Of a DNA stretch of 64,000 bases, positions 20,166 through 57,159 are shown in pieces; the first letter of the stretch is position 1, and each line of letters opens with the position of its first letter. The DNA is from a candidate division FCPU426 bacterium. Lineage in GTDB: Bacteria; Oederibacteriota; JAAXVQ01; JAUVAV01. The notes below the pieces were generated by a model that made no database searches, had not been told where the DNA came from, and saw only the letters and a list, made by a program, of their open reading frames with translations. The stretch lies in the NCBI GenBank assembly GCA_030591525.1, contig JAUVAV010000008.1:15839-79838 (forward strand), read 5' to 3'. Made by a program: the position numbers and the translations under genes.

Positions 20166-22409
20166 ATGCGCTTTACGATTTTAGCCATCCTACTTCTGGG
20201 AATCCCGTGCTTGCTCCAGGCCCATGCCTATTCCGGCCGGGTGATCGATAAAATAACCGGTGAAGGACTGCCCGGAGCCTCCCTTTCCGGCCTCTCGGGC
20301 GAGAGCGCGCGAACCGATGAGCAGGGATTTTTCACTTTGGATTGTGAACAACCAAAAGTACTGATACAAATGCCCGGATTCCAGGATAAATCCCATATCC
20401 TCCGGAAAAAAGATAATCTCATAGCGTTGGAATTACAGGGCGTTTATGATATCCCGGCCGTGGAAGTCAAGGCCAAACCGGATGCCAAAAAAGTAATTGT
20501 GAGTAAACAATCCCTGGAAAAAGAGGCGATTCAAAAAACCACTACCTCGCTTTTTCCTGACGTGGCCAAGGTCGTGCAAACCCTGCCCGGCGTAACCACG
20601 AACAGCGACTTTTCCAGCTTGCTCTACGTTCGGGGCGGAAATCCGGACGAGGTGGTCGCCATTTTGGATGACATGCTGATTATGAGTCCCTATATCTGGG
20701 GGGGCCGGCTCTCGGTCTTTAACCCCAACCTGGTGGAATCCGTGGATTTTTACGCCGGCGGATTTCCGGCCGAGGCCAACCAGGCTATGTCGGCCCTGCT
20801 TGATGTCAAAAACAAGACCGGCAACCCCAGGAAGTACGCCGGATTTATGGATTTATCCGCAGCCACGGCCGAGGCGCTGGCAGAAGGCCCCCTGGGAATC
20901 ACGGAAAACAGCTCGTTCATTCTCGGCCTGCGGCGCACCCATTACGACCTGATCATCAACTCTTTCGCTGATGACAACACGGTTTACCCCTACTTCTGGG
21001 ACGGCCAGGCTAAATTGACTCTGCCCTTACCTCACGGCGCCCTGACTTTCCAATCTCTTTACTCCTATCAAGGCATGCATCTTTTATTGTCTGAGACTGA
21101 AGGTTTCGGCGACGACCACGGGGTAGAAACCAGCTCTCAGTATCTTAACAAGAAATGCGACTCCAGCCTGGCTTATAATCACCAATGCTCCGATACCATT
21201 AGTGTCATGACGCTCCTGGGTCTATCCCTGGAAAGCGGGTTTTTCACTCTTACGGATTTTTATTCCCCTTTGGAAGCGAACTTTGATCAATCCTTGCTGC
21301 AGTTGCGTCATGTCTGGCAAATACTCCTGGGCGATAACCATATCGTTAAGGCCGGGCTATATGCCATTACCGGCCACGCCCTGGCCAAGGTGGATATAAC
21401 CCGCAAAATACCGACCCGGGACGGATATTATATCAAGCATATCGCAACTGATTTTAATTTTGATTGGCCGGTCTTCGCCGGCGGCTTTATACAGGATGAT
21501 ATGGAACTGCTCAAGGATTCCCTTTATCTTAATCCCGGAATAAATCTCCAGTATTATTCAGGAAACCAACAAATGGTAGTCAATCCCCGTTTGGGCGTTA
21601 AGTGGCAGGTCCTGCCGGATTGGGAATGGCACGCCGCTGCGGGAATCTACAGTCAGCACCCCATGGAGCCGAGCCGGTTGGATCAGGAGTACGGCAATCC
21701 CGGACTTCTGGCCCAGGAGGCCGTTCATTATATCCTGGGATCGAGAATAGATCTGGGCAGGGATTTCTTTATCCAAGGCGAGTTTTTTTACAAGGATTAT
21801 AACCACCTTATGGTCAGCGACGCGGATCCGGACATTAACTACACTAATAACGGCGAGGGTTATGCTTATGGATTTGATATCATTTTCCAGAAGAAACTCG
21901 GCGGCCCCTGGGACGGCTGGCTGACCTACAGCTACGTCTCTTCCCAACGAAAGATCACGGCCCGAAGTGATCCCCTGGATTTCGGAATGAATCAGGCCGT
22001 GGTCCCCCTGAATGAGTGGTATACCCCGGAAAGCGAACGGCCGCACGCCCTGAGCCTGGTCCTGAATTATACGGTTTCCGGAGACTGGAAGCTTGCCCTC
22101 ACCCAAAAATATATGTCCGGCTGTCCTTACACGCCGGTCACGGGGGCGTACTATGTGGCAGCAATTGATGAATACGTTCCGGAGTACGGCGATATAAACA
22201 GCGCGCGCCTGCCGGACTTTTTTACCACGGATATTAAACTGTCCATGCCTTTCTTCGGGCTTAAGGGGTGGAGCTCTTATGTTCAGACCTCTAACCTGTT
22301 TGGCAATAAAAACGTGGATTCCTATTATTACAACGAGGATTATTCGGAAAAACGCGCGCTTTACCAGCTGCCCCGCATGATAATCGGCGGTATTCGCTGG
22401 GAATTTTAA
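20166..22409 (+). CDS. TonB-dependent receptor-like outer-membrane protein with an N-terminal carboxypeptidase-regulatory-like domain
   Basis: It has a signal peptide, a CarbopepD_reg-like start (YSGRVIDKITGEGLPGASL) and a plug-like region. It is 747 aa with a C-terminal aromatic end (RWEF). It lies directly downstream of exbBDD-tonB. Confidence 0.7.
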   Translation: MRFTILAILLLGIPCLLQAHAYSGRVIDKITGEGLPGASLSGLSGESARTDEQGFFTLDCEQPKVLIQMPGFQDKSHILRKKDNLIALELQGVYDIPAVEVKAKPDAKKVIVSKQSLEKEAIQKTTTSLFPDVAKVVQTLPGVTTNSDFSSLLYVRGGNPDEVVAILDDMLIMSPYIWGGRLSVFNPNLVESVDFYAGGFPAEANQAMSALLDVKNKTGNPRKYAGFMDLSAATAEALAEGPLGITENSSFILGLRRTHYDLIINSFADDNTVYPYFWDGQAKLTLPLPHGALTFQSLYSYQGMHLLLSETEGFGDDHGVETSSQYLNKKCDSSLAYNHQCSDTISVMTLLGLSLESGFFTLTDFYSPLEANFDQSLLQLRHVWQILLGDNHIVKAGLYAITGHALAKVDITRKIPTRDGYYIKHIATDFNFDWPVFAGGFIQDDMELLKDSLYLNPGINLQYYSGNQQMVVNPRLGVKWQVLPDWEWHAAAGIYSQHPMEPSRLDQEYGNPGLLAQEAVHYILGSRIDLGRDFFIQGEFFYKDYNHLMVSDADPDINYTNNGEGYAYGFDIIFQKKLGGPWDGWLTYSYVSSQRKITARSDPLDFGMNQAVVPLNEWYTPESERPHALSLVLNYTVSGDWKLALTQKYMSGCPYTPVTGAYYVAAIDEYVPEYGDINSARLPDFFTTDIKLSMPFFGLKGWSSYVQTSNLFGNKNVDSYYYNEDYSEKRALYQLPRMIIGGIRWEF

Positions 22410-29398: not shown

Positions 29399-30976
29399 CT
29401 ACTTTAAAATGGCTATTTTTTGCATGGGATGGACTGTTACCGCGCCGCTGGTCGTGGTTATCATCCGGCAGAAATAAATGCCCGGCGCGATCCCCTGCAA
29501 AGACCAGACCACAGCTTGGCCTGGATTGTCCTGCTTGACTTCCATCACCTGCTCTCCCAAAACATTGAACACCTTGATTTGTATGGACGTCACCCCAACG
29601 GTTTGCCAGGTGAAGCGGACCTCGTTTTGGGCGGGATTGGGATAGGCCAGGATGACCCGCGTGGATAATGCGCCTAGTACCGTCGGGGTCGGCGTGGGCG
29701 AAACCGTCGTGACTGGCGTGGATGAAACCGCCGGGGTCGGCGTGGACGAAACCGTCGTGACTGGCGTGGATGAAACCGCCGGGGTCGGCGTGGACGAAAC
29801 TGTCGTGACTGGCGTGGACGAAACTGTCGTGACTGGCGTGGGCGAAACCGTCGTGACTGGCGTGGATGAAACCGCCGGGGTCGGCGTGGACGAAACCGTC
29901 GTGACTGGCGTGGATGAAACCGCCGGGGTCGGCGTGGACGAAACCGTCGGAGTCGGCGTGGACGAAACTGTCGTGACTGGCGTGGACGAAACTGTCGTGA
30001 CTGGCGTGGACGAAACCGCCGGGGTCGGCGTATACGGCTTGGTATTGGCCGTGTATATCACCGTGTCCATGACCGTGCCGTCCGCCCGGATATGGCGCAA
30101 GGTGGCTTGGGCGCCGTTTACGCTGATTTCCGTGTATCCATAATAGGCGGGTTGCGCCTCATCGAACGAATAGGCGACCATATAGCCATTGTTGTCGTGA
30201 TTCTCGTCCACGGCGTACAGCGGCGCGCCGCCATTGCCTGTGACGATCTGTGCAGTGCCGGCGAGCGGATCGAGCGGCGGATTCTTGTCCCCGTTAAGGT
30301 CGAGTTTAAGCGTGCGAACGTAATAATGCGCATGCCCGGCAAAAATGACGTCACAGCCGCCTTGATACAGCGGTACGCCCCAGGTGGTGTGGAGGGTGCT
30401 TTCGTACACCTTGGGCCCGAAATCAAAGATCGGTGGATGCCAGATCGCGAACAGCCAGTCCTGCGGATTATTCTGAATGGCCTGCTGAAGCATGGTGTAT
30501 TGCGCACCGGTCAGGGACTCGTAGGGATTCAGAATGATGAAGCGGGCGTTCTCGTAATCAAAAGTAAAAAACGTGCCGTTGTTGCCAAATTGGCTGTTCT
30601 GGCCAGGCAGGTAAGTGTTCCAGTTGGCCAGCCCGGCCGGCACGGTAACTTGATCGTGATTCCCCGGCACGGACATATACTTTGGGGGAACCGCGCTCTG
30701 GCCAGTGCCACCCAGGGTCTCATTACAGGCTTGCTGCCAAATATTCCACTGGGACGCTTGCGTGCCGTCCTCAACCACGTCGCCCACGCTGATGATGAAG
30801 CAGTAGTCGGGCGTGTTGGCCTGGATGGCGTTGAGTACGCTGCGGTGAGCTGTATCGTCCGTGCGCGTGTCCCCGTATACCACGAATTTCCAGGGGGTCG
30901 CGGCCTGGGCTTGTGCGCCTGTTAATATCAGCAGCGCCAGCAGTGCCAGCGCCCTGGGTGTAACTTTCCTACGCAA
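29399..30976 (-). CDS. Secreted calcineurin-like metallophosphoesterase with a Thr/Pro/Val-rich repeat linker and a T9SS-type C-terminal sorting domain (CTD)-like tail
   Basis: It has a signal peptide (MRRKVTPRALALLALLILTGAQAQA) and metallophosphatase motifs (GDTRTDD, GDVVEDG, GNHD, AGHAHYY). The linker is (SSTPVTTV/SSTPTPAV)n. The tail has YPNPAQNEVRF...GIYFC...ILK. The start is TTG at 30976. Confidence 0.7.
   Translation of the reverse strand: MRRKVTPRALALLALLILTGAQAQAATPWKFVVYGDTRTDDTAHRSVLNAIQANTPDYCFIISVGDVVEDGTQASQWNIWQQACNETLGGTGQSAVPPKYMSVPGNHDQVTVPAGLANWNTYLPGQNSQFGNNGTFFTFDYENARFIILNPYESLTGAQYTMLQQAIQNNPQDWLFAIWHPPIFDFGPKVYESTLHTTWGVPLYQGGCDVIFAGHAHYYVRTLKLDLNGDKNPPLDPLAGTAQIVTGNGGAPLYAVDENHDNNGYMVAYSFDEAQPAYYGYTEISVNGAQATLRHIRADGTVMDTVIYTANTKPYTPTPAVSSTPVTTVSSTPVTTVSSTPTPTVSSTPTPAVSSTPVTTVSSTPTPAVSSTPVTTVSPTPVTTVSSTPVTTVSSTPTPAVSSTPVTTVSSTPTPAVSSTPVTTVSPTPTPTVLGALSTRVILAYPNPAQNEVRFTWQTVGVTSIQIKVFNVLGEQVMEVKQDNPGQAVVWSLQGIAPGIYFCRMITTTSGAVTVHPMQKIAILK
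29682..30040. repeat. Tandem ~30-nt periodic repeats (gtggacgaaaccgtcgtgactggc / gtggatgaaaccgccggggtcggc variants) encoding the TP-rich linker
   Basis: Read directly from the sequence. At least 12 units with two alternating variants. Confidence 0.85.
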
Positions 30977-42903: not shown

Positions 42904-43596
42904 TCATTTATTTCTCCGCTTGGTGCTCCGCACCCGGTAAAGGCGTTCGGTAAAACCACCCTCGTTTTCAAAATCCGCAGCCAGTCTCACAATCTGACGA
43001 TCGAGAAAATAGCAGGCTAAATTCAACAAAGAGAGCGTGGCATTAGCAACCAGGCAGGCAGATGACAAGGACTCGCACGGACCATCACTGACATTCACAG
43101 ACTCCTTAACTTGCAAGACCGGCCGATTCACATTGGTGTCCGTGTTCGTCCGTGAGTCTCTGTCAGTCTGTGTCTGTCCCTGTTTGTCCGTGTCTATCCC
43201 ATTTCGGCGTTCCTCCGCAACCCACTGTTGCAATTCGTCCAGTGTCTGGCAACGTCGCTCCTTAAACCGGATCAGAACCGGGTGCTGCGGTTCCAGCATC
43301 TCCAGTCCGCGCTGCCTTAAAAAATCCTCATAGTCCAGCTTCAATTCCTCCAGGCTGGCCCGCGCTACACTTGTCAACTTCAGTTCAAATTTTTTCGATG
43401 TACCCGACGCCTGGCTCCCCTCGGCGATATTCTGCACGCCTGAGCGTGCCGCCTGCACCATCTGATCATGCGTGCGGCTTCGTCTGTCGATGTAACGGTC
43501 ACAAAACCGCACTGTTACGTCATAGGCAAGTTGCGCAATCTGAAAGCTCTTCAGCTTCCGGTAACCGCCGTGTTTCGGGATTAATGGTTCAGACAT
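42904..43596 (-). CDS. Four-helix-bundle protein (23S rRNA intervening-sequence protein family) with a C-terminal suffix domain and a low-complexity insert
   Basis: It has the family core ..QIAQLAYDVTVRFCDRY...QMVQAARSGVQNIAEGSQ...ARASLEEL. It is 230 aa with a TD/TN-rich insert encoded by the gtc(c/t)gtgtct repeats at 43125-43200. Confidence 0.6.
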   Translation of the reverse strand: MSEPLIPKHGGYRKLKSFQIAQLAYDVTVRFCDRYIDRRSRTHDQMVQAARSGVQNIAEGSQASGTSKKFELKLTSVARASLEELKLDYEDFLRQRGLEMLEPQHPVLIRFKERRCQTLDELQQWVAEERRNGIDTDKQGQTQTDRDSRTNTDTNVNRPVLQVKESVNVSDGPCESLSSACLVANATLSLLNLACYFLDRQIVRLAADFENEGGFTERLYRVRSTKRRNK

Positions 43597-43687
43597 TTAT
43601 TTTTCTCCATGCTTGTCAATGTTTCCCTGTTGGGTTCAATTTGTAGATGCTCCAGGTTTCAAGTCCTTGAATTTATCAATGATTGTG

Positions 43688-43873
43688 TCAAGCACTTAAG
43701 ACCCTTCTCCTTGACCCCTCCTGCTTCTCTGCCGCCATCAGCTTCTGTGTCAGCCAGACAGTTTTATCTTCATATCGAACCTCAATGCTCTCTTCCCCGC
43801 TTTGGGCAGTAAAAATAATAAATTCAGCCGTGCTATTGTGTATTTGCAATTTGTTACGAGCTTTCTTTTTCAT
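43688..43873 (-). pseudogene. Remnant of a RhuM-family (virulence protein RhuM-like) gene, N-terminal ~45 aa only
   Basis: The segment IIFTAQSGEESIEVRYEDKTVWLTQKLMA matches the conserved RhuM N-terminus. The frame then diverges and terminates after 61 aa. Confidence 0.4.
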
Positions 43874-43977
43874 CTCTAAATCTCCTTTAGTTACTCCGCC
43901 ACTCTCAGTGTCTGTAAACCAAGCACCCGGTACAGGTATCCATAACTATTATTTCATCCACATAAAACAATCAAAAC

Positions 43978-45270
43978 TTACCGCATTTTTCGCATTTTAC
44001 CTTCCCAAGCCAGCACTAACGCTTTATTGCCTCTTGATGCTTCAGAAATAACAGCAGACAATATTTGAGTTTCTGCACGATGAGTGCCAATATAACCGGA
44101 ACGAATCAGACCAACAATATCTGCTTCCCTCAAGTATATACCCTTCAAGGCATTATAACTCAAACGTATTCCACCTCTTGGCCCCGCGGCCACAGGAGAC
44201 TCCAGTATCTGATTTAAGTGGTGAAGGGAAATCACAAAAGACTGGCAGGAATCTTGTTCAACGCTTCTTTTCACAAATTTAAAGAAAAAAGGGTTACTAT
44301 TCAGACGGTAGTCTGATATTTTAGTTTTAAAATCCGGAAATTTCATCCTTTTAATTTCATTTTTTAACTGTTTATCAGGTCTAAACACCCAGTCTTTATT
44401 TCCGGATTCACTTCGCGCTTTTTCCAACATTTTATATTGGATCATAACAATATTTCCGCTGATTTCGTTAACATAGATCAGATCCACTCCAAACATCTTT
44501 TCCAAAGGCAACTTGTTCGCTGTATAAATCACGAGCCGTTCATCGCGCTTCTCGAAAACAGCCCTCCCCGTAATATCTTGTTCAATCGCATCAAACCCTG
44601 GCAGCTGGCAGGCATCTTTCCGAATAACATTGTCTTCATATAAATAAGATCCAATCGAGCTAACTTCTGACGCTGCATTTGTTTTTACTGCAACGTCGGT
44701 CGGGATTTGGTTTGCATGAAGACCGAAAGCTGACATTGCAGAACGAATGGCATTCTCCTGAGCCCAATTTATATTTGGAGTACGTACTAACTGAGGCAAT
44801 TGCTTAGCTGCGGTTTCCATTGCACTTTGATTTCTCTGGTCTTTTGCGAGCATATCTATCAATTGAACGCTCAACTTTGGCGTGAGCGCAGAAAAAAGAA
44901 CCTCGTCTGATATTTTTCTATTAAATAAGTTGCGAAAGCGGTTATTTGATAATTTTTGTCCAATTGCTTTAAGCGCAGAGGGCTTAATCAATCTGAGCTT
45001 TTTTATCGTTAGGCGAGAGTCAAAAGTGCTTACCGCTTTTTTTACCTTTGCAGTTCCAAGGTAACACTTGGTTTTGTTCTGCTCTTGAGTCTCCAGCAAA
45101 CATAATGTCGGCAGTTTAAAATCACCAAAAACCAAGTGTGATCGCGCAATGGTTAGATGCTCAAATCCTTGTCGCGACTCATTTAGAAAGTTTGATAATC
45201 CTTCATCAAACCTAATCAGAACAACAGGTTTCTTTTCAACCCACCTGGAAATTTCGTTTGCAATGTTCAT
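43978..45270 (-). CDS. Hypothetical protein with a C-terminal PD-(D/E)xK-like nuclease motif (candidate Shedu/DUF4263-like defence nuclease)
   Basis: 430 aa with no TM or signal peptide. The motif ..ERLVIYTANK..GVDLIYVNEISGNIVMIQYK.. has the spacing of the PD-(D/E)xK motifs II and III. ATG 45270 is preferred over the tool's TTG at 45276. Confidence 0.45.
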   Translation of the reverse strand: MNIANEISRWVEKKPVVLIRFDEGLSNFLNESRQGFEHLTIARSHLVFGDFKLPTLCLLETQEQNKTKCYLGTAKVKKAVSTFDSRLTIKKLRLIKPSALKAIGQKLSNNRFRNLFNRKISDEVLFSALTPKLSVQLIDMLAKDQRNQSAMETAAKQLPQLVRTPNINWAQENAIRSAMSAFGLHANQIPTDVAVKTNAASEVSSIGSYLYEDNVIRKDACQLPGFDAIEQDITGRAVFEKRDERLVIYTANKLPLEKMFGVDLIYVNEISGNIVMIQYKMLEKARSESGNKDWVFRPDKQLKNEIKRMKFPDFKTKISDYRLNSNPFFFKFVKRSVEQDSCQSFVISLHHLNQILESPVAAGPRGGIRLSYNALKGIYLREADIVGLIRSGYIGTHRAETQILSAVISEASRGNKALVLAWEGKMRKMR

Positions 45271-45684
45271 TAACAATACACTCCTTCAATTTCTCCGCCA
45301 TCTTCACTTTTCAGATAAATAACATTCAGGTCTATTAGCTTGCATTTGGCACCTAACCCTATTTCAACCATCCCGAGGAAGTCCTTAAAATGGTCTGCAA
45401 CATCATATCCACTGTTTGTACACATTTCTTTAGCTCACTCAATAACAGCGTGGTTGCATTCATCTCTGAATTCCCTGGAGCTTCTTCTTCATTTCCACCT
45501 TAACCCCAACCAGCTCTTTTTCCAGTGTATCAATTTCTGCTTCTTCCTCAAAAGGCTGAATTGTAACTCATATTGTGACAAATTCAACTCAAATTCCTTC
45601 TGCTATGTGTAAATTGCAAAACCATTTTATCAGCTAATTTATAGCCCAATATTTTATAGGAGACATGGTGCTTTCTCCTTTTTT

Positions 45685-45822
45685 CCAGGAGCTTGAGCAT
45701 TTAGTCTGCTTTTTGAGAGTAGATAGTAGAAAGTAGACCGCATTTGAGATATTTTATCTAATTTCTACTATCGAATCTCAAATGCTCTGAAGCCTGAGTA
45801 ACTAGTTGCTCAGGCTTCTAGG
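45685..45822. repeat. Family C miniature inverted-repeat element (canonical copy). Its right terminal inverted repeat overlaps the stop codon of the giant gene.
   Basis: The sequence is CCAGGAGCTTGAGCATTTAGTC-...AGTAGATAGTAGAAAGTAGACCGCATTTGAGATATTTTATCTAATTTCTACTATCGAATCTCAAATGCTC...-GAGCCTGAGTAACTAGTTGCTCAGGCTTCTAGG. Confidence 0.85.
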
Positions 45823-48800
45823 CCGCGCCGGCGTATGACAAAGACATTTCCCGGATACGACGAGGCGGACGTAACTGCTGCCCATTGGAGTGAAAGATTT
45901 CGTCGTCGTACAAGGTCATCAACTGTTCCTTGAGAAGATCGTCTTTCAAAAGCCGGGCGGGTATTACGCGCTTGATCAAACCTGCCTGGCCGGCGCGAAA
46001 TTGAAGGACTTGCTGGTTGGCCGGGTCAATATGCCGGAAGATCAGTAAAATATGGTCGCGATATGCCAGATCACCCGCCAGCTTGGCACGCCGCATTTCT
46101 TTCATAAGATGGTGCATGATGGATGTGAGAATCTCGCCGTTTTGCGGCGAGTTATCCAACCGGTGCAGGGTACGCATCAGCCAGGCGTCCTGGTTCAAGC
46201 AGCGTTCCCGGATCCGGCGGGAAATAACCGATTTATCATGCAGTTCGGGATCTGCGGCCAGGACTTCTTGTAAGTAACGGCCGGGCGCCAGGTAAAAAGC
46301 GGTTCCATTGATTTTATTCGCATGGTAAATGATCATCTTCAAATGATGATCGATTTCATCAGCTTGAGTATGGGTTATCCGCAGTATCCATAGGAAAACA
46401 GGCGAACGATTCATCAATTTCCGGCCGTCGTGCCATTGCTTTTTTATATGGTCATTCTCCGGAACCGCGTGCCAGGCGCGGCCGTTAACCACTTTTAAGA
46501 TGTCTTTTATGGCTTTCCAAAAAGCCGGCTGCCGCATAAGAAGAATAACCAACAGGATTCCGGGAAGCTTGCGTTGGGAAACGCCAAGCTTCAGGTGCAG
46601 GGAATGTTGTCCGGCCTTTTTAAGCGCCCGGGATCCCATCACCAGTGCCAAGACGAAAAGCACCAGCCGTGATACTTTTTTGCGGGCGGCTATGGCGGTA
46701 TCAGCGCCGGTTTCCTCTCCCGGCAGGCGAATTCCTTCTTTTTCAAGGCCGGAGAATCCGGCAGACCGTCCCGCCACGCCGGCCGCCGCGCTTCGGAAAT
46801 CCGCAAAGGGTGCCTGCAGCGCTTCTTCAGAAATTACCGGTACCGGGCCTTGGCGGAAAACAGCTATACGATAAAGATCATCGCGGTAATGTGTCCGCCG
46901 GATGGCTTCCGCTTCATCCTTTGAAAAGTCCAACCGCCCGGAACTCTGTTCCTCCCGGACGCGCTGTTCAAAGGCGGCCTGCGCGGCTTGATTATCCGCC
47001 AAACCGGCTGCCGCCTCTCCCACCGAGGCGTGCATATCGGATGCCAGACTTTGCTTTTTTGCCCACCAGGCCAGGCGGTCCAGATCTACACCGTCTTTCC
47101 ACCCGTGGGCTCCAGGGCAATAATTAATAAACATGATACTGCCGGCCTTCAATTTGCGGGAAGCTTGCGTCATAACTTGGTAAGGAGTAAACCAGCAGAC
47201 TGCCACGCCGTCCTGGGCCTTACGGGCTTGGGCCTGCAAAATCTTCCGGCGTTCTTTGAAATAAGCGTTCAGCCCGGGTATGCCATCTAACTCAACCTCC
47301 CGGTTATCCGCCGCAATAAACCGAACCTTACCGGCACTGTTCATTTCTATCCGGACTGTGTTTTGATATTGCCCGCTCAGGATAATCATGCCTTTGAAAG
47401 CAGCCATGCTCTCCAGAGCGGCCGGCGTTTGCTCTCCCGCGGGAATATTAACCAGGCGCATATTCTTTAAAAAATCCCGATAGGTTTGCGCCGCCCCGGG
47501 ACGGATTTCCATGCGCTGGTTGAAGTAAGCTGTAATATCTTCCTGCAAACCGTCAATGTCCGTAACCAAGGTATATTTGCCCTTAAATTTCGCCGGGCCG
47601 CCTAATTGTTTCCACTGCCGGAAGGCGTACTCGGCAATCGCCGGACCCTGCCCCCGGTGCAGAATCCGCTGGTATGCGCTGTAGCCGGCTTGCAATCGTT
47701 CTTCCGCCTCCTGACTTGCCAGAGAATCAGGCTCCGGGTAAAACGTATCTGCCCGGGCTGCCAGGAAACCCAAATGTACCAGCCCCGCAGACACGCCGTT
47801 GCCAATAACCCGGCCTCCCAGCCAGCCGGCCGCAGCGCTCCAGACGGCCGCCAATCCGGTTAAGATCCACTCTTTCCGGCGGAAGCGTTTGAACCCGGAT
47901 CCAATCAAGGATAAGAATAGGCGCTGGTCCGGCTGAATTGGTTCCAGCATAAACCGCAACTTTTGGCCCAGAGGGCTGGTTTTAAAACGGAGCCAGGGCC
48001 GGATCAGAAAGAAACGCTGCCATTGGCCGGACCCCGGGGGTTGAGGTTTGATATTAAGCTCACGGTGGCGTTCCATAAGATTTATCAAAGACGCAGATTC
48101 TTCCTGCCTGAGCTGCTGCGCCATAGTCCCCGGAGACTTCCGGCTCCACTTCTGAAGCCAATCATCAGCCAGTCTTCCGGCGATCCCGCGAAACCTCTCA
48201 CGCGCTGCTTCCAGCTGGCCGGAATCGTAGACAGCATACGGTTCCGGCCAGGGATGAGCCAGCCGGGTGATTCCCGCCTTCTGGATTAAACGGCTGAATC
48301 CTTCCTCTTTGGTCAAGTCCTTGCTAGGGCAGTTGCTGGAGACCGCGGAAAGAGTAATCGGAACTTTGGAATAGCGGTTAATACGTTCCTTCAGAGTCTG
48401 CAGAAACAGAGGCGCCGCCTGGTTTAAATTCCGGACAACCAGCAAGCGTCCCAACTGCTCCTCCTCAATATGCATAAGCAGCGCGGGCAGCACCCAAGGA
48501 TGACAGGAATTTATTTCGGGCGCTTCTATTTTATATTCAATATCCAAAAGATGTGTGATTTCCGGGCAAACCACAACGATTCGGATTTTTTCCTTGTCAT
48601 AGACATGCCGGGGAGGCGCCCGGCTGATGAAAACCGCGGGTTCAAATTTTTTCAGCCGGCCTAAAAAGCTCAGTCGTTCAATAACTAACCGCTCCAAGCC
48701 GAAAAAACTCAACACCCAGGGGGCCGCTTTTTCATAAAGCAGATAGCCATCGGCATTTTTAACCTCAGAATTAATCGCATAGCGTTTTTGCAGAGCCCTG

Positions 48801-51800
48801 ATTTTTTTTAAATAATGAAAACTGAAAAGATTTTTACCTCCTCCGGAAAGTCTGTGCGGCATGGCTATAGGCTTTAATTTGCCCTGGTCTATCACAACTT
48901 TTTTATGTTGGTTCGCCTGGGCCCGGCACAGAAAATAACGGGCCCGGAATAAGCTGGCCTCGACCCACTCGGCCATTTCCCGGGAAGTAATCTGTTGTTC
49001 TCTTTGCTTCCGATTTAATTCCCGGCGTCTTGGTTCGGAATACACCAAGGAGGCCTTGGTAACTCCAAAAATGATTTCCGGAACAGGGAGAAATTCGCCG
49101 CATCCGGCCGGTGAACTTATCGGTTTTTCCGGGCCGGGTTGACTTATGGCCTGAAGCGTAATCGGCTCCAACTTCAGACCCAGGCTCTGTTCGGTCACCT
49201 GGTGCAGCAACCGGCCCGGCCGGGGACGCCATGCCCTATTTTGCAGGATATTTGCTTTTTCGGACCAAGGTAAGCTTTCAAGATAATTCTGGACTAAGTC
49301 GTGCCGATTGACGCGCAACAAAAGACGTACGCCGTGGAGCTCATCCTGCAACACCCTGACCAACTGATCGTCTCCCATGGTTTTACAAAGCCGGGCGGCG
49401 GCTTCTTCTACCTGTTGCAAAGTCATGGTTTTCTCCCAATCGCTTGCCGGGCGTACCAGGACGTACTTCTCCTCAAATTCCTGAGCCAGGATGCTTCGGA
49501 CATGCTGCAGAGCTGCGCTCACGCTATCGGCTGATAAGGTATGATCCATTAAAAAGGCCGCCCGTCCGTGAATGCCAAAACGCTCAATTTCCTGAAAACC
49601 TCTCCGGCCGTTCAGCCGGCGCATGAACTCCGTGTTTAGTATCCGGTGGATGTGGTCTGAAATATCCTGTTCGAGCATGCAGGCCACATCTTTCCCATAG
49701 ACTTGCTTGATGCTGAGGATATTCTCCAGTCCGGCCAGACCGATCCAGGCATCGCCTTTTTTCTGCAGGATACCGCGAAAGCGCGCGGTTTTTGTCTCTG
49801 GTTTCTTCCGAAGCAGAGCTTGATTAACCAACTTGATCGCTTCCGGAACTGGCAGGTACCGCATATCCAACAGTATGGCATCCGGATGAGGGTGAGCCGC
49901 TTCCTTGGGATTATGGTCGATTACATAAAATCGCGCGGCTTTTTCCGCCTGGTTCTCGAATAATCTAAATGATGGCGTCCGGCGGTGTCCCACTACAATG
50001 AGATTTTTTTCCTGGGCGGCATGATCCACCAAGCATTGATCTACCTGACCGCTGAAATGATCGCGGAGCATATCTTCTGTAAAAATCCGCTTTACCATAG
50101 CCTTGACTTCCGGCTGCATGATTTCTTCCATTTCCGGCTGATCGTGATGCGGTTTTCCGTTCGCGCCTTCATATTCTACCAGCATGCTGTTTTCACCTGT
50201 TCGGGAATTGAATTGAGGCGTGATATTTATTCGGGAGATGGTTTTTTGTATGCCGATCAGCCGGGCCGGAGTAAGCGGTGACCGGCCATCCAGACCTTTC
50301 TGCCGCTGTACGTCCAGCACTTTCCAGGCCAAGGCCCGGCGCATGAATTCCACGTTAACATAACTGTACCCATATTGGCGTGCCATCAGGGCCGCCAGTT
50401 GGTGCTTATGAAAAGTTCCCGGTCCGTCCAGGGTTATAATATGGCGTATTTGTTTATGGGAATAATTATAGGCACCCCAGATGGCCGTTAATCCGGCGGC
50501 GGCCGCTATCAACCAAGCCGCAGGCAAGCTCAAAATTATGCCTGAGACGCCGGCCCCCAGCCCTATGGCTCCCAGCACGAGCATACGGAGCGCGTCTCTC
50601 TGCCTCGGGTGCAAAAAGCCGCTCCAAATTCGATGAAATATGCGCGCCAGGGAAAGATACTCCAAAAAGGTAGCCGTATAATAGCTGCGGCCGACCTGGA
50701 TATCCAATAAATATTTGAGTACCGCCATTTGGCCATCGTGGGTTAATTTAAGCAAATTGGGATTCAACAAAATCTTGCCATCATCCCCAATATCGCCTAT
50801 GGTCCCAAAAGTCTGACCCCATTTTAGTTTCTCCGACGGCAGAACGCCGAAATGCGGCTTTTCCGGATACATCCCCGGATGCCGGGCCTGCAGTCCCGTA
50901 AAGAGCGGGGCCATGAACTCTACGATGTTTTCATTGGTTAAGCGGACCGCGTTCTTTTTTCTTTCTCTGAGTAAGGGTAACCTGTCCAGGCCGGGAATGC
51001 GGTTCAAGCTGGAATTCAGATAGGCGAATAAAAAACAGAAATAGTAATACATGCGAGGCCCGGAATTGAAAAACATATAGCCGCCGGATCCCAGGGACCA
51101 ACTGGTTGCAAATGTAAGGGATACCTGAGGCACAAAGAGCATGCCGAGCATTATTATAATAACCAAGGGAAAGAACAGCTTGACCATGCCGGTGCCATAG
51201 GCCTGTACCACGGCCTTGTGAAAAAGCGGGGGCGCGGTTTCACTCTTCCACGCAACCAAATATTTGTAGGTACCTTTGGTTAACTCGTAGACCAGTTTAA
51301 TCAGCACATGAACGGGAGACAAGGACAGATTACAGGGTCCTGACCACATGGCATCGGTAACCGACATGTCCAGCTTGGTGTGGGGATTGACTTTACGGAT
51401 AGCGTAAAAGTTTAGGGCCGCCATGCCTGCCACAAAAACCGCTGCCACCAAAATCCCGAGCGTAGGAAGTGCTGGGGATAACAAGGCCAGGATGAGACTT
51501 AAATACATGATGGTAAATATCCATCCGTAAGATTCGCTGATATGGCCTTTCCGGACCAAAGCTGCGGGATAAAACCAGGGCTCCAGGAGATGGGATAATC
51601 CTGCCGAAATGAAAATATTCCAAATATAATAACCCGGCGGTGGGCGCTGCAATTTTTCCTCAGCCTCTTGGGCTGCGGTCCGGTATGCCGCCAGACTGCG
51701 GTACTTGAAAAAACGGCTAATCGCAGGCCGGCGCAACAGCCCGTCGATCGCCTGATTAATAAAATAATGAGCATAAAGCTGGTAGGCCACGACAAAGAAC

Positions 51801-54223
51801 GGCGCTTCAATATTTTCCCGTAGCTTTTCCTGTCCGGCAGGCTGCGCGCCACGCAGCGGCTCCACCAGCGTGCCTTGTTCGTGATCCTCATAGACCACGG
51901 CTTCATCTATTTGTTCCAGACCGGCCAGCCCGTAGGTTTGATAAAGTTTGTAAACCACCCAGAAAAATCTCGATACGCTGACGACCAGATAAAAAACCAA
52001 GAAACCCGCCAATGCGGGCAAAAAGCTTCCCCCTATGCAAACCAAAACGGCTATAAGAACTGTTGCCCAGGTTTCCCGCAGGGTCATCCCTCCAGTATCG
52101 TATTTGTCTTTACTCCCACTGCCTCTCCGCATATTGAGCAAAGTAACTACCGTGGCGACGCTCCAAATTCCAAAAAAAATGCCCGGCAGGTTCGGTCCCA
52201 GAACCAAGACCGGCAGGATACCGGCCGCCATGGTCCCCAGGCCGTAGCGCGCTGACTTTGATGCGGATCGAAAAGAAAACCATTGCCGCCTCTTTTCATA
52301 TATTCCGGCCGCGATTTCCTTTCCTCTTTCCGCAAGCTGTTTGGTATAAGCTGCTGTGGGGGATAGCCGGGTTTGGTCCGGGGATTTCCATTTTTTCTTC
52401 GCAGTCCGGACGTGTGCCCATCCCGGCTTTTTCCCGTAAGCTCGCCGGCTTAGTCCCAGCATTTTGGCCAGAGTTTTTTCGTCACTCACTACATCGGCCT
52501 TCACAACATCAAAAACACTTCCCTTTCCCTCCAGGACCTGACTGTCTACGCAAGGGTAGGCGGGCGATTCCCGGGAAGGCCTCAAAATAATCCAGAAATA
52601 GTTTCCGTTCAATCTATCCTGGACCTTAAACGCAAATACCTTTCTGGCCGGGTCGCTCCAGGCTGAATCCATGTTCACTTGTACGGTTTCGTCGTTTTCT
52701 TTCCAGGACGTCAGGGTGCGTTGGAAATGACTTTTCAAGGTTTCTTTCCCGGTTTCGCCTTGGTTAATATGAAAATTCAAAATACTGATTTTACTGACTA
52801 CGTCCATAAGCCGCTGAGCCGTGAAGTCATTGAACAGGCTGGACGTCTTGAAATATTGCTCTTTTTCTTTCAGCAGCTTTTCCAGGGGTGTGCGCCGGCC
52901 ACGCAAAAGCGCAAAATAGGGATTCGATATATCCGGGCGCGTAAGCCGGGGTCTTACCGAAATAAAGGAAATATTGTGCCGCTTCAGCGCTTTCTCCACC
53001 AGAGCGGCATGAAAGCCGCCGGCGACCAGGGCGGCCAGACTCTGATTTTTCTTTTCCATTTTCTCCAGAAGATTTTGCACAAAGGCCTGGGAACGGGTAT
53101 CAGCCAGGGAATAAAAATTCATGGCGGACTCAAGATAGTGGTCCATCTCCCCCACACCGGGATCGAGATCCAAATCCAGGCCGCCGGTATATGACCATTT
53201 CTCCAGAAAAGCCAGCAGCGTCTTCACCGAGCATTCCTGCGGGTGGGACCGAAAATAATCCAACTCCTCCGGCTCAGCGCTGATGGCTATCATCTTTTCC
53301 ATGATCGTCAGCAGGTAAAGGCAATGATCCAGTTCGCGCTGTTGCGGGGATAGATAGGAAGCTTCCCGCAGCGCTTTTTCCAGGCATCGCAGTTTGACAC
53401 GCTCTTCCTCCGCATCCGGCCATCCGGAGTGCATCAGGTCCGCGCTGAACGCAAAGACGAGTCCTCTGCGCCGCGCTTCCTTCCGGAGAAAATTACCATA
53501 CTTTTTCAGGGAGATGCCTTGGCACTCATAACTTTCTTTCATATGGTCCAGCTTGGCCAAATCCAGGCTGTAAATGGAAGGCTTTATTTTTTGAAAAGCA
53601 TGGCGCAGGTCCGCGCACAGGCCTTGGCTGGCATAGTTTAAAAAACCGTCCAAGGCGCTCTTCTCAGCGGCGTAGAGTTCCGGTGATTCCACGCCTTGAA
53701 GCTCCAGAGGAAAATTGCTGGTAATGGCCGCATATTCCGCGCCGGTAATATACCCGCGTTTTAAAAAGTATTCAGCCACGTCCATCTTGACGCGCCTAAT
53801 CGGAAGGGTTGCTAGCTTGTCCACGTCTACCCGACGGCTGTCCCCTTCCACGCCTACCAGACGCAAATCATGGCCGCGGGCCAAACGCTCCAGAATTTTA
53901 GAGATGTGGCTTTGAATTTCATGATGACAATGCAGATCATGGACAAAAACCACCATCCGCCCGGCACTGCCCTGGTTACTGCTGGTGACACACCCCAGAT
54001 CCGGCAAGATATTCGAAGCCACAGATTGAAGGACGCGGGAAACATTTCCCCGTTCCCAACCAACTCCGGCACGGAAGGCGGACCCGTCAAAGGCAAAACC
54101 CAAAGTGGGAAAAATCAATCCCACGGCAAGCAGCAAAGTCAGGGCACGATTTAGACACTGCCCCATCGGACTTCTTCGCCAAAAGATCAATCCCGGCCGG
54201 GCTTTTTCCATTGGCTTTTTCAT
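45818..54223 (-). CDS. Giant (~2800 aa) multidomain membrane protein of unknown function
   Basis: It is an 8.4-kb uninterrupted ORF. The likely start, ATG 54223, is preceded by AAGAGAGG. A 28-codon upstream in-frame extension to 54307 is possible. Hydrophobic blocks lie at aa ~50-70, ~690-780, ~895-1100, ~1240-1280, ~2040-2075 and ~2560-2620. A degenerate cytidylate-kinase-like segment (IITLDGPGTFHK...YGYSYVNVEFMRRALAW) is present. A TraB/GumN-like pair of motifs occurs near the N-terminus (VVFVHDLHCHH ... LVAGGFHAAL). Confidence 0.8.
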   Translation of the reverse strand: MKKPMEKARPGLIFWRRSPMGQCLNRALTLLLAVGLIFPTLGFAFDGSAFRAGVGWERGNVSRVLQSVASNILPDLGCVTSSNQGSAGRMVVFVHDLHCHHEIQSHISKILERLARGHDLRLVGVEGDSRRVDVDKLATLPIRRVKMDVAEYFLKRGYITGAEYAAITSNFPLELQGVESPELYAAEKSALDGFLNYASQGLCADLRHAFQKIKPSIYSLDLAKLDHMKESYECQGISLKKYGNFLRKEARRRGLVFAFSADLMHSGWPDAEEERVKLRCLEKALREASYLSPQQRELDHCLYLLTIMEKMIAISAEPEELDYFRSHPQECSVKTLLAFLEKWSYTGGLDLDLDPGVGEMDHYLESAMNFYSLADTRSQAFVQNLLEKMEKKNQSLAALVAGGFHAALVEKALKRHNISFISVRPRLTRPDISNPYFALLRGRRTPLEKLLKEKEQYFKTSSLFNDFTAQRLMDVVSKISILNFHINQGETGKETLKSHFQRTLTSWKENDETVQVNMDSAWSDPARKVFAFKVQDRLNGNYFWIILRPSRESPAYPCVDSQVLEGKGSVFDVVKADVVSDEKTLAKMLGLSRRAYGKKPGWAHVRTAKKKWKSPDQTRLSPTAAYTKQLAERGKEIAAGIYEKRRQWFSFRSASKSARYGLGTMAAGILPVLVLGPNLPGIFFGIWSVATVVTLLNMRRGSGSKDKYDTGGMTLRETWATVLIAVLVCIGGSFLPALAGFLVFYLVVSVSRFFWVVYKLYQTYGLAGLEQIDEAVVYEDHEQGTLVEPLRGAQPAGQEKLRENIEAPFFVVAYQLYAHYFINQAIDGLLRRPAISRFFKYRSLAAYRTAAQEAEEKLQRPPPGYYIWNIFISAGLSHLLEPWFYPAALVRKGHISESYGWIFTIMYLSLILALLSPALPTLGILVAAVFVAGMAALNFYAIRKVNPHTKLDMSVTDAMWSGPCNLSLSPVHVLIKLVYELTKGTYKYLVAWKSETAPPLFHKAVVQAYGTGMVKLFFPLVIIIMLGMLFVPQVSLTFATSWSLGSGGYMFFNSGPRMYYYFCFLFAYLNSSLNRIPGLDRLPLLRERKKNAVRLTNENIVEFMAPLFTGLQARHPGMYPEKPHFGVLPSEKLKWGQTFGTIGDIGDDGKILLNPNLLKLTHDGQMAVLKYLLDIQVGRSYYTATFLEYLSLARIFHRIWSGFLHPRQRDALRMLVLGAIGLGAGVSGIILSLPAAWLIAAAAGLTAIWGAYNYSHKQIRHIITLDGPGTFHKHQLAALMARQYGYSYVNVEFMRRALAWKVLDVQRQKGLDGRSPLTPARLIGIQKTISRINITPQFNSRTGENSMLVEYEGANGKPHHDQPEMEEIMQPEVKAMVKRIFTEDMLRDHFSGQVDQCLVDHAAQEKNLIVVGHRRTPSFRLFENQAEKAARFYVIDHNPKEAAHPHPDAILLDMRYLPVPEAIKLVNQALLRKKPETKTARFRGILQKKGDAWIGLAGLENILSIKQVYGKDVACMLEQDISDHIHRILNTEFMRRLNGRRGFQEIERFGIHGRAAFLMDHTLSADSVSAALQHVRSILAQEFEEKYVLVRPASDWEKTMTLQQVEEAAARLCKTMGDDQLVRVLQDELHGVRLLLRVNRHDLVQNYLESLPWSEKANILQNRAWRPRPGRLLHQVTEQSLGLKLEPITLQAISQPGPEKPISSPAGCGEFLPVPEIIFGVTKASLVYSEPRRRELNRKQREQQITSREMAEWVEASLFRARYFLCRAQANQHKKVVIDQGKLKPIAMPHRLSGGGKNLFSFHYLKKIRALQKRYAINSEVKNADGYLLYEKAAPWVLSFFGLERLVIERLSFLGRLKKFEPAVFISRAPPRHVYDKEKIRIVVVCPEITHLLDIEYKIEAPEINSCHPWVLPALLMHIEEEQLGRLLVVRNLNQAAPLFLQTLKERINRYSKVPITLSAVSSNCPSKDLTKEEGFSRLIQKAGITRLAHPWPEPYAVYDSGQLEAARERFRGIAGRLADDWLQKWSRKSPGTMAQQLRQEESASLINLMERHRELNIKPQPPGSGQWQRFFLIRPWLRFKTSPLGQKLRFMLEPIQPDQRLFLSLIGSGFKRFRRKEWILTGLAAVWSAAAGWLGGRVIGNGVSAGLVHLGFLAARADTFYPEPDSLASQEAEERLQAGYSAYQRILHRGQGPAIAEYAFRQWKQLGGPAKFKGKYTLVTDIDGLQEDITAYFNQRMEIRPGAAQTYRDFLKNMRLVNIPAGEQTPAALESMAAFKGMIILSGQYQNTVRIEMNSAGKVRFIAADNREVELDGIPGLNAYFKERRKILQAQARKAQDGVAVCWFTPYQVMTQASRKLKAGSIMFINYCPGAHGWKDGVDLDRLAWWAKKQSLASDMHASVGEAAAGLADNQAAQAAFEQRVREEQSSGRLDFSKDEAEAIRRTHYRDDLYRIAVFRQGPVPVISEEALQAPFADFRSAAAGVAGRSAGFSGLEKEGIRLPGEETGADTAIAARKKVSRLVLFVLALVMGSRALKKAGQHSLHLKLGVSQRKLPGILLVILLMRQPAFWKAIKDILKVVNGRAWHAVPENDHIKKQWHDGRKLMNRSPVFLWILRITHTQADEIDHHLKMIIYHANKINGTAFYLAPGRYLQEVLAADPELHDKSVISRRIRERCLNQDAWLMRTLHRLDNSPQNGEILTSIMHHLMKEMRRAKLAGDLAYRDHILLIFRHIDPANQQVLQFRAGQAGLIKRVIPARLLKDDLLKEQLMTLYDDEIFHSNGQQLRPPRRIREMSLSYAGAA

Positions 54224-54510
54224 CAGGCCTCTCTTTGCTTTTTTAAAATATGCTCCTGTATTTTTTTGCAAACGCGGTAATAGAGAAATCCCATCACGCC
54301 TATGCAAAGTAAAACTATCAACCCTAAAACAATTTCCATTTTTCTATTCTCCTGTTTTTATTCAGATTAATTATAGCTTCTGTTGGTTAAGAAAATATTT
54401 CGGAAATGTGTTTTTTGTGTGAATATTTATCAGATGCTTTAGAGAGATCGCTGGAGAAAATACTAAATTGCACTAGTGTCGTGTTTCATAAGTACGTTGA
54501 ATTAATGTTT

Positions 54511-54777: not shown

Positions 54778-57159
54778 TTATTGTAAAACCTGATCCCGTT
54801 TTTGCTCCTCGCCGAATAAATTTCCCAGGCTCTTTTCCCAGGTGTATTTCCGCAGAACATTTTCGCGCGCCTTAGCCTGCATTATGGCAAAAGCTTTGGG
54901 ATGATTCTTTTTAATATCCAACAGTTTGTTTATTGCCAGGGTCCAGGCTTCCAGGTAATTGGCCGGCAAAACCATGCCGGTTTCCTGATGAATTACAATT
55001 TCCTTCGGACCACCTATGTTTGATACGACCGCCGGCAAACCGCAAGCTTGCGCTTCCAATACCGCCATACCGAAAGTATCCGTGGTGCTTGGAAAAACCA
55101 AAAGATCGGCGGAACAGTATAATTCCGGAAGAGCCTCCCGGGGCAAGCGTCCAAAAAATTTGATCCCCGGAATTTTAATATATTTACTTTTTAGCCTTTC
55201 CAGGCAAGGTCCGTCTCCGGCAATAATAAGCTGCATATCCGGATTAACTCCCGTTAATTCCTCGTAAATTTTGAACAGGAAATCAATATTTTTATCTTTA
55301 GAAACCCGGCCGGAGTATAAAAGCGTGGGTTTTACAGCCTTTTTCCCTCCAAACTTGCGCGTTTGAATTTCAGGCTTAAACACTGCCGTTTCCACAGCTT
55401 TATTATAGTATGCCAGTTTATGCAGCGGATAATTGCGTGCTTTAAGAATATCCAGATAGGCTTTGGTCGGCACTTTTATCTCATCCATAAGGGAATAGAA
55501 CCACTTTATATATTGTTCAACCGTGCCGGCCAAATCATCCTGTCCGCTGATTTGAATAATCTGCGAAGAAAAATCTGTATGGTAAATTCCAGAACATGGC
55601 AAATTCAGCAGCTTGGCTGCCAGCACTCCCAGTAAACCAATTGGCCCTGGCGCGGAAACAAGTATCCTGTCAGGTTCTGCCTGATAAATAAGTTCCACCG
55701 CTTTAAGCACTGACGGTATAAAAAGATAAAGATTTTCATAATACGGCAAAGAAAAGGTATGAAAATAAGGCAGTATAAGGGTGTTCGGCGGAAGGCAGGC
55801 TTTATCACTTTTAGCGTCTATCGCCGCAGCGATTTGCACCTCAAACATTTTTTCATGTGCCAGCCGGCCGGTTTGTTTAATCGTCTCCGCAACCCCGTTC
55901 ATGTCCAGCAGCGTATCCGTAAACCATAATATCTTTTTTCTGCCTTTCCGGGAAACCGGCACATACTCCCTTCGCATATGATTAATCATGGTCCGGCTGC
56001 GAAACATATGCCGCAAACTTGTAAAAAACGGGATTGAGATAAAAACCGCAGGAATTGCCGAGGAAACATCCCGGATTATCTTGCTGATATCACCCCTTTT
56101 AATGTCCTTTTCCAAGACCTTAAATAACTCCTTCAAAAAGCCATCCGCAGCATTGGCAATATATTGAAACATGATCTGAAACTTCCGCTCATAGTCATCC
56201 TTCCCCCCGCTTCTAAACTCTTCCATCAGCCTTAGGAACGCTTCCTGGCCTTCATCCTTGCTCTTTAACCACTTCCACCGGCTTAATGGCAGGCGGTCTT
56301 TCCAGGAAAACCTGGCTCCCTGGAAAAGGCTATTATGTAATTGTTCGAGCAAAGGCTGGGATATGATCAATTTTTTATCTTCAGAAAAATCGTAAGCTAT
56401 CTTGTATATAGTAAAAACAAAGGTCCGGTAATTATTATGGCGGCCGCCAACCGTGGTAAGTTTATCCTTCAAGCAGAAGAGGTATTCCTCCGGAGAGAAA
56501 GCACCGGCTGTGGTATGGGTCGCTCCAATGAAAAGACCGGCGTGATCATCGCTGCCTCCGGTTATACCCTTTACCCAGGAATCATCACTAATCGGGTTTA
56601 TGCCGTGTTTTTTCTGCAGTGTGGCCAGGCGCTCTGGCGTAAGATTTTTTAAAATTCCCATCCAGCCAAAGTTGCTCATTTTATCCCGGCTGCCGTTGAT
56701 TCCTTCAAAAATATCGAAAAGCAGAATCAGCTTTTCGAGGTGGCTCTGCGTCAGACGGTCGTTCACCGAATAAGCGGCATGCGCGACTGAATAGGCCAAA
56801 TCCCGGCGCTTAATATAATCGCGCAAGTTGTAGATGTTCTGCCGGAGCGAATCAATTTCTTCCCACTCCTGGCGGCTAAAACCGTAGATAAGCAAATGCA
56901 CTTTACACCCGTCTTCCGGGAAATAGGTAGTCGCCTCAACTCCGGTAAAGCAATCCTTTGGGTACTTATTTTTTAAATATAAGGCTCCCTCGATTTTATT
57001 GTGGTCAGTAAGCGTGACAAAACGCATGCCCTTGGCTTTGGCTTGGCAATAAACTTCATCCGGACTGGTATAGGATTCATAAGCCCCTAATTTCTTCAGG
57101 AACCAGTCCGCGGCATGACGCGAATGTATGGAATGAACGTGCAAATCGGCTTTGGCCAT
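54778..57159 (-). CDS. PHP-domain (polymerase/histidinol-phosphatase-like metallophosphoesterase) fused to a GT4 (group 1) glycosyltransferase
   Basis: The N-terminus carries the PHP signature (ADLHVHSIHSRHAAD...TDHN). The C-terminus carries the GT4 EX7E region (SADLLVFPSTTDTFGMAVLEAQACGLPAV). The protein is 793 aa. Confidence 0.7.
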   Translation of the reverse strand: MAKADLHVHSIHSRHAADWFLKKLGAYESYTSPDEVYCQAKAKGMRFVTLTDHNKIEGALYLKNKYPKDCFTGVEATTYFPEDGCKVHLLIYGFSRQEWEEIDSLRQNIYNLRDYIKRRDLAYSVAHAAYSVNDRLTQSHLEKLILLFDIFEGINGSRDKMSNFGWMGILKNLTPERLATLQKKHGINPISDDSWVKGITGGSDDHAGLFIGATHTTAGAFSPEEYLFCLKDKLTTVGGRHNNYRTFVFTIYKIAYDFSEDKKLIISQPLLEQLHNSLFQGARFSWKDRLPLSRWKWLKSKDEGQEAFLRLMEEFRSGGKDDYERKFQIMFQYIANAADGFLKELFKVLEKDIKRGDISKIIRDVSSAIPAVFISIPFFTSLRHMFRSRTMINHMRREYVPVSRKGRKKILWFTDTLLDMNGVAETIKQTGRLAHEKMFEVQIAAAIDAKSDKACLPPNTLILPYFHTFSLPYYENLYLFIPSVLKAVELIYQAEPDRILVSAPGPIGLLGVLAAKLLNLPCSGIYHTDFSSQIIQISGQDDLAGTVEQYIKWFYSLMDEIKVPTKAYLDILKARNYPLHKLAYYNKAVETAVFKPEIQTRKFGGKKAVKPTLLYSGRVSKDKNIDFLFKIYEELTGVNPDMQLIIAGDGPCLERLKSKYIKIPGIKFFGRLPREALPELYCSADLLVFPSTTDTFGMAVLEAQACGLPAVVSNIGGPKEIVIHQETGMVLPANYLEAWTLAINKLLDIKKNHPKAFAIMQAKARENVLRKYTWEKSLGNLFGEEQKRDQVLQ

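Follow-up and report, generated by a model that had tools for sequence, protein, structure and literature searches.

The window, a 64,000-nucleotide stretch of a contig from a candidate division FCPU426 bacterium, carries on its minus strand a giant gene in which a first-pass annotation had noticed a short segment resembling the P-loop of (d)CMP kinases. This raises the question of whether the segment belongs to a genuine cytidylate kinase (CMK) domain and, if so, what such a domain does in the middle of a very long protein. The mechanical ORF of the gene (45818-54307) reaches back to a TTG at 54307. Translation probably starts at the ATG at 54223, which has AGAGAGG ahead of it; the protein read from there matches a deposited entry of 2,801 aa (P0001) with 100% identity. 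We found full-length orthologues of P0001 with 81% and 79% identity (P0002, P0003) and a 3,870-aa homologue (P0004) with 32% identity over 49% of the query. P0001 is a multi-pass membrane protein, with at least seven hydrophobic segments in a hydropathy scan, and an enzyme-derived module (residues 1257-1474) is embedded in its middle (Table 1). This module is the sole recognisable foothold in an otherwise unannotatable sequence of 2,801 residues. The rest of the protein, compared with Pfam in seven pieces, gave no match at E < 0.1, and residues 1481-2100 and 2101-2801 had no sequence match in the PDB.

Table 1. Positions in the window of the giant gene, the parts of its product discussed here and the gene upstream
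Feature	Position	Strand	Residues	Remarks
Giant gene	45818..54223	-		2,801 aa from the likely ATG at 54223; stop codon 45818-45820
N-terminal family-defining domain	52784..54088	-	46-480	EreA/ChaN/TraB/TIKI-like fold; invariant DxH...E...GGFH
Transmembrane hairpin	50468..50587	-	1213-1252	Directly before the CMK-like domain; hydropathy scan
Complete CMK-fold domain, probable pseudokinase	49802..50455	-	1257-1474	
Peptide flagged at first, HIITLDGPGTFHKHQLAALMARQYGYSYVNVEFMRRALAWKVLD	50312..50443	-	1261-1304	b1/P-loop/a1/b2/a2 part of the domain
Degenerate Walker A, DGPGTFHKHQ	50399..50428	-	1266-1275	Gap-free against 1q3t, 3akc and 2h92
Remnant of NMP-binding motif, YVNVEFMRRAL	50330..50362	-		Y(I/L)D(S/T)GxxYRAL in true CMKs; 3akc alignment
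Three-stranded beta insert, NMP-binding region	50141..50227	-	1333-1361	
GHRRT in place of the CMK core GRDxGT	49976..49990	-	1412-1416	hhalign
LID deletion site	49880..49915	-		12 residues, HNPKEAAHPHPD, between b4 (RFYVID) and b5 (AILLD)
GT4 glycosyltransferase	54778..57159	-		793 aa; directly upstream of the giant gene; Pfam Glycos_transf_1, E 1.6e-35

The flagged peptide, HIITLDGPGTFHKHQLAALMARQYGYSYVNVEFMRRALAWKVLD, is real. Its positions had been given as 50320-50443, without a strand; stop codons crowd the plus strand in this region, and the peptide is encoded on the minus strand from a span that extends to 50312. The residue numbering of ~1288-1330 was sound, as the peptide covers residues 1289-1332 when counted from the first TTG and 1261-1304 when counted from the ATG at 54223. 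It accounts for a quarter of a complete cytidylate kinase domain, at the N-terminal end.

When the giant protein was compared with the 24,736 families of Pfam at E values up to 10, Cytidylate_kin was the sole match (E 0.0077 on the full 2,801-aa protein; for an excerpt of 270 aa, E 2.9e-4 with 21.1 bits). The 21.1 bits lie below the PF02224 gathering score of 26, and the match is limited to profile positions 1-44 of 211. In NCBIfam, the cmk model and three cmk-fusion models were matched and nothing else, TIGR00017 scoring 20.4 bits, below its threshold of 135.55. A single-sequence phmmer search of the PDB with residues 1257-1490 gave four matches, all of them cytidylate kinases. Each also aligned a second time, weakly but in collinear order, at the C-terminal PDAILLD/xDAxxLD strand, and a four-sequence profile reached a best E of 2.6e-4. 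A homologue search with the isolated domain returned no matches, the parent protein included, and was replaced by an exhaustive one, run with hmmsearch on 1.84 billion representative proteins. The full domain was found in only three 50%-identity clusters, those of P0001, P0004 and a 2,372-aa protein (P0108). The next matches after these giants (E about 1e-5 to 1e-3) were CMK-type sequences, including a genuine ~230-aa CMK (P0110), an AroA-Cmk fusion (P0117), a further CMK (P0118) and truncated CMK-type sequences (P0109, P0111, P0112). With CMKs alone recovered by Pfam, NCBIfam, the PDB and the exhaustive search, the CMK-like pattern first read from the sequence goes far beyond chance.

The first-pass annotation had staked its call of a nucleotide-kinase fold on a profile-profile match, and such a match was found. 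Compared by hhalign with four true CMKs, chosen for matching the N-terminal part of the domain, a profile of five pseudo-CMK domains aligned with 98.3% probability (E 2.2e-14), in 185 columns over CMK positions 6-222. Nearly all of the sequence-level signal sits in residues 1261-1304: the first ~47 columns alone gave E 8e-14, while the remainder of the domain alone was weak (P 6e-4), yet collinear and in the correct register. An AlphaFold2 model of the domain (pLDDT 73.5, pTM 0.74) used no templates, and its input alignment consisted of just four family sequences, none of them a CMK; the model was weakest around b4 and the LID site (pLDDT 50-60). Its elements run b1, P-loop, a1, b2, a2, a3, three-stranded sheet, two helices, b3, helix, b4, (no LID), b5, C-terminal helix, an order that agrees with that of CMK. 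Foldseek gave no significant match of the model in the PDB. A three-stranded insert distinguishes CMKs from other NMP kinases (PMC3813627), and the model predicts both the NMP-kinase core fold and this CMK-specific beta insert in P0001. We conclude that residues 1257-1474 have the CMK fold, the CMK-specific insert included.

We then compared the active site with that of T. thermophilus CMK, from whose complexes the residue roles were taken (PMC7259600). The 3akc alignment is gap-free; mid-domain residues were paired from hhalign and predicted secondary structure, because MAFFT, given pseudo- and true CMKs together, aligned this middle part wrongly. The CMK motif DGPxxxGK(S/G)(S/T) pairs without gaps, and at equal length, with DGPGTFHKHQ. 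The latter departs from the Walker A consensus GxxGxGK(S/G)(S/T), since of GK(S/G)(S/T) only the Lys is kept, in line with the original description of the Gly-Lys-Ser/Thr as replaced. Gly14 has become His1272 (Gln in P0004 and P0108), Ser16 the invariant His1274 and Ser17 Gln1275, while Lys15 is invariant as Lys1273. The family consensus reads DG[PV]xx[FL][HQ]KH[QR]; its K and the H after it are the same in all five sequences, even where identity falls to 25%.

In solved CMKs, cytosine and the phosphate of CMP are read by Ser33, Tyr37, Arg107, Arg126 and Asp127 (T. thermophilus numbering) together with Arg153, Arg171, Asp175 and Gln178 of the LID, and Arg38 is also listed among the CMP-contacting residues (PMC7259600). 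The domain of P0001 does not keep the set Ser33, Tyr37, Arg38, Arg107, Arg126 and Asp127. Ser33, Gly34 and Tyr37 correspond to Val1291, Glu1292 and Arg1295, and hhalign pairs Arg126 with His1413 and Asp127 with Arg1414. The latter two belong to GHRRT, whose G, H, R and T do not vary among P0001-P0004; P0108 reads DRGRT. Arg38 is retained as Arg1296 in P0001-P0004 and is Ser in P0108. At the position of Arg107, hhalign places Arg only in P0001-P0003, and P0004 and P0108 have Gly. Of the active-site residues compared, the P-loop Lys15 alone is kept in all the pseudo-CMK homologues. As a side observation, the retained P-loop Lys and several arginines may permit some binding of nucleotide or phosphate, and even residual activity is conceivable.

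A direct comparison with the true CMKs P0110, P0117 and P0118 showed ~46 residues, catalytic arginines included, between b4 and b5, whereas P0001 has only the 12 residues listed in Table 1, flanked in the model by strands E181-187 and E200-203. A LID with Arg153, Arg171 and Asp175 is not present in the P0001 domain. With HKHQ for a Walker A, other residues at most of the CMP-contacting positions and neither the LID nor the catalytic arginines that it carries, the domain is in our view a pseudokinase. Judged from these residues, donor binding, acceptor recognition and transition-state stabilisation all appear compromised, and the loss of kinase function suggested at the outset seems correct. 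The domain is thus probably a CMK-derived pseudokinase with a non-catalytic role.

This domain is not a decaying relic and is under purifying selection. It has the highest identity of any region of P0001 (88%, 86% and 40% in three comparisons, with 72-84% and 30-37% for the other regions), and its dN/dS against the orthologue in locus L001 is 0.23. The core DG..K-H..LA..AR..G..Y.N is invariant down to 25% identity together with T1416 and D1453-M1454; K1273, H1274, T1416 and D1453 are thus all unchanged over this range. With no part of the protein more strongly conserved, the domain presumably does something, and something non-catalytic.

The membrane setting of the domain is also conserved. 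The same transmembrane hairpin lies directly ahead of it in P0001, P0004 and P0108. Both flanks of the hairpin are basic and its short turn is uncharged or acidic, and by the positive-inside rule both the CMK-like domain and the loop of ~180 aa ahead of the hairpin are inferred to be cytoplasmic; crude hydropathy and positive-inside counting serve here for this local hairpin argument only. The first-pass annotation had placed the domain inside a membrane machine, a phrase that fits only loosely, in that the protein is multi-pass and has a transmembrane hairpin ahead of the domain. The domain was probably taken over from a true bacterial cmk gene, with an in-frame fusion placing it after the hairpin. 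The conserved cassette around it would consist of a transmembrane block, the ~180-aa loop, the hairpin, the CMK-like domain and ~600 aa with no recognised fold, and the domain would most likely be a rigid membrane-proximal module of it. It could be a packing or interaction platform. Alternatively, its remodelled basic pocket (Lys1273-His1274, Arg1296, His1413-Arg1414) could hold a phosphate-bearing or other anionic ligand; such a pocket would have no specificity for cytosine. Either option would amount to a non-catalytic role, in binding or as a scaffold.

The surroundings of the gene were examined in the window and in related loci. Obg encoded in the window has 63-65% identity to proteins labelled candidate division FCPU426 and Firestonebacteria. 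Downstream of the giant gene are a phosphate porin and a pst operon, and the order GT4, giant gene, porin, pstS is repeated in L001 at 89-91% identity. By tblastn, the GT4 gene is directly upstream in L001 (89% identity) and was also found in L003 (42%), the locus of the distant P0108, where GT4 and pstS (40%) still flank the gene. The P0004 locus has an opp-type transporter as its flank instead. A DAG-kinase-like lipid kinase is encoded ~6 kb from the giant gene. PADLOC gave no match for two small genes downstream of the giant gene.

A different role had been proposed at first, namely recognition of a CMP or CDP headgroup. In its fuller form, the domain would still recognise CMP, CDP or a CDP-linked headgroup (e.g. 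CDP-diacylglycerol or a CMP-sugar) and hand it over to the membrane part or sense it on that part's behalf. We consider this unlikely. It could draw on the preserved CMK fold with its NMP-binding insert, on the P-loop Lys and Arg1296, and on Arg107, which may be kept in P0001-P0003, and a GT4 syntenic upstream in three loci and the lipid kinase nearby would suit it. However, the equivalents of Ser33, Tyr37 and Asp127 are Val, Arg and Arg, that of Arg126 is His, that of Arg107 is Gly in P0004 and P0108 and that of Arg38 is Ser in P0108. The LID residues that close over CMP or CDP are gone with the whole LID. Headgroup recognition is unsupported because the residues that read cytosine are those that changed. 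GT4 enzymes typically work without CMP-sugars, which also counts against it.

It is highly improbable that the domain is an active, if atypical, phosphotransferase or NTPase using the retained Lys, with His1274 standing in for Ser/Thr. Lys1273 is invariant, the P-loop has kept its length and catalytic signatures are kept elsewhere in the family (KKCGH of isocitrate lyase, TASHN of PGM), but the Gly before the Walker Lys is His or Gln in five of five sequences, neither of the two hydroxyl residues that should follow the Lys is left, and Arg153 and Arg171 of the LID, which stabilise the transferred phosphate, have no counterpart. That the resemblance is due to chance or to a generic P-loop, in a region not derived from CMK, is scarcely credible: the scores are below the Pfam and NCBIfam thresholds, Foldseek found no PDB match and the true CMKs for the profile comparison were picked by their N-terminal match, but CMKs were the sole family recovered by four independent routes, the alignment is collinear as far as the C-terminal xDAxxLD motif and the AlphaFold alignment contained no CMK sequences.

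Taken as a CMK-derived pseudokinase, the domain shares with bacterial Cmk (PF02224, TIGR00017; 1q3t, 2h92, 3akc, 3r20, 4e22) the fold, the element order and the three-stranded insert, as well as the IxxDGP start, the P-loop length and its Lys, the LAxxLGxxY(I/V)(D/N) helix-strand, the xRALxW helix and the C-terminal PDAxxLD strand. It differs in having HKHQ, in the replacement of Ser33, Tyr37, Arg126 and Asp127, in the shortening of the LID from ~46 to 12 residues and in scoring below the family thresholds. Cmk is a free enzyme of ~220 aa, whereas the P0001 domain sits within a membrane protein of 2,801 aa, from residue ~1257 on. CMK modules are likewise fused to other proteins in AroA-Cmk, PanC-Cmk and Cmk-Der (PRK11860, PRK13477, PRK09518). 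These fusions keep GxGK(S/G)T, GRDxGT and the LID and are active and soluble, whereas the module of P0001 is degenerate and membrane-tethered. With P-loop pseudoenzymes that act in scaffolding or ligand sensing, it has in common a conserved fold, a degenerate Walker A and purifying selection. A search of the literature on cytidylate kinase-like proteins turned up nothing pertinent and no earlier-described pseudo-CMK.

The other end of P0001 places it in a wider family. Its N-terminal ~430 aa are common to ~100 other long proteins of 1.6-4.9 kaa. Among 103 homologues beyond P0001-P0004, all but one align somewhere within query residues ~60-470 (E down to 1e-109), the exception being P0103, which starts at query residue 353. 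This head domain, with ~400 homologous residues, comes after an N-terminal hydrophobic segment. It resembles EreA/ChaN/TraB/TIKI proteins in fold and has His/Glu in its N-terminal half and GxxH in its C-terminal half; D51, H53, Q59, E81, R332 and GGxH357-360 are invariant. Its profile had no sequence match in the PDB. Homologues with a source name, a minority of the ~100, come from Omnitrophota, Elusimicrobiota, Chlamydiota, Clostridia and Desulfosarcina. The enzyme modules found in relatives are PGM, PPDK/PEP synthase, isocitrate lyase, malate synthase and glycogen synthase, and several sit in mid-protein (PGM at 1337-1785, malate synthase with isocitrate lyase at 1074-1985, glycogen synthase at 798-1400).

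A more specific and rather unlikely version of the non-catalytic role is that of a metabolite sensor, whose remodelled Lys-His pocket would pick up a nucleotide or phosphate signal and pass it on to the part in the membrane. The common EreA/ChaN/TraB-like head and transmembrane scaffold would then form a lineage-wide chassis into which housekeeping enzymes are plugged (CMK, PGM, isocitrate lyase, glycogen synthase and others), some active and some serving as ligand-binding switches. Such a sensor would fit the conserved neighbours of the gene, a GT4 glycosyltransferase and the pst phosphate-uptake operon.

Membrane-anchored multi-enzyme long proteins of Archaeovorin type have been catalogued in Omnitrophota (bioRxiv 10.1101/2023.11.21.568195, 10.64898/2026.06.07.730766). 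Like them, P0001 has a signal or anchor sequence, many transmembrane helices and an embedded housekeeping-enzyme domain. It differs in length, the published giants being far longer at 10 kaa and above, in its host, candidate division FCPU426 and not Omnitrophota, and in that its only recognisable module is a dead CMK. The 2026 preprint (10.64898/2026.06.07.730766) does not mention cytidylate kinase, and neither the 2023 nor the 2026 bioRxiv preprint mentions an EreA/ChaN/TraB-like fold for the head domain. The domain is best seen as a rare conserved pseudoenzyme module in a known class of modular long membrane proteins.

The embedded enzyme modules of the long proteins of Omnitrophota, Elusimicrobiota and related phyla are therefore not all working enzymes, as in one lineage at least, purifying selection maintains a cytidylate kinase stripped of its catalytic machinery. 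This calls for caution, as Pfam labels alone are insufficient for reading such proteins as 'metabolic clusters'. At ~220 aa, the domain is a small and tractable target for asking what embedded modules do. Otherwise, the case is one of fairly ordinary pseudoenzyme evolution, of modest wider importance. Finally, we considered whether all embedded modules of the family are dead and rejected this, since KKCGH of isocitrate lyase and TASHN of PGM are intact in relatives; one module among the relatives is degenerate, with HSGGI in place of KxGGL.

The gene order around the giant gene was found to be conserved. GT4 glycosyltransferase, giant gene, porin O/P and pstS follow one another in the same order at L001, the locus of its close orthologue. 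At the distant locus L003, which encodes the 2,372-aa homologue P0108, the giant gene is still flanked by GT4 (42% identity) and pstS (40%). Conservation of this neighbourhood is a hint that the giant gene is tied, by function or regulation, to envelope glycosylation, phosphate uptake or both.

Coordinates of the features discussed
Feature	Sequence	Position	Strand
TonB-dependent receptor-like protein	window	20166-22409	+
Metallophosphoesterase with T9SS C-terminal sorting domain (Por_Secre_tail)	window	29399-30976	-
Porin O/P and pstS side of the conserved order	window	37-42.6 kb	-
Two genes separating giant gene from phosphate porin	window	42904-45276	-
GT4 glycosyltransferase	window	54778-57159	-
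Additional long gene (2,269 aa), P0108 locus	L003	1853-8662	
Pseudo-CMK gene (P0108), P0108 locus	L003	8760-15878	

Two genes separate the giant gene from the porin in the window. One encodes a 432-aa protein that matches nothing in Pfam or PADLOC, the other a 230-aa protein similar to 23S rRNA intervening-sequence protein. Neither was detected by tblastn in L001 (~13.8-14.2 kb), which is otherwise collinear with the window, so that the two loci differ here by an indel of ~2.8 kb, which may represent a small inserted element, mobile or accessory.

At the P0108 locus, the pseudo-CMK gene has another long gene immediately upstream of it, which codes for 2,269 aa and matches Metallophos weakly. 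In P0108 itself the head domain is followed by a clear LysM peptidoglycan-binding motif, and that part of the protein is accordingly expected in the periplasm. The Por_Secre_tail metallophosphoesterase and the TonB-dependent receptor-like protein indicate that the envelope specified by this FCPU426/Firestonebacteria-like genome is diderm and that a type IX secretion system may be present.

When the isolated 241-aa domain was used as query, a word-indexed homologue search (E up to 10) returned zero matches, not even the parent protein, which an exhaustive search recovered at E 5.9e-139. This word-indexed search can overlook domain-level queries taken from very long proteins.

The enzyme modules embedded in P0015, P0043 and P0066, relatives from outside the window that share the head domain, differ in the state of their catalytic motifs. 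KKCGH is retained in the isocitrate lyase module and TASHN in the PGM module, but the KxGGL motif of the glycogen synthase module reads HSGGI. Within the head-domain family, embedded enzymes that look intact therefore occur alongside others that look degenerate.
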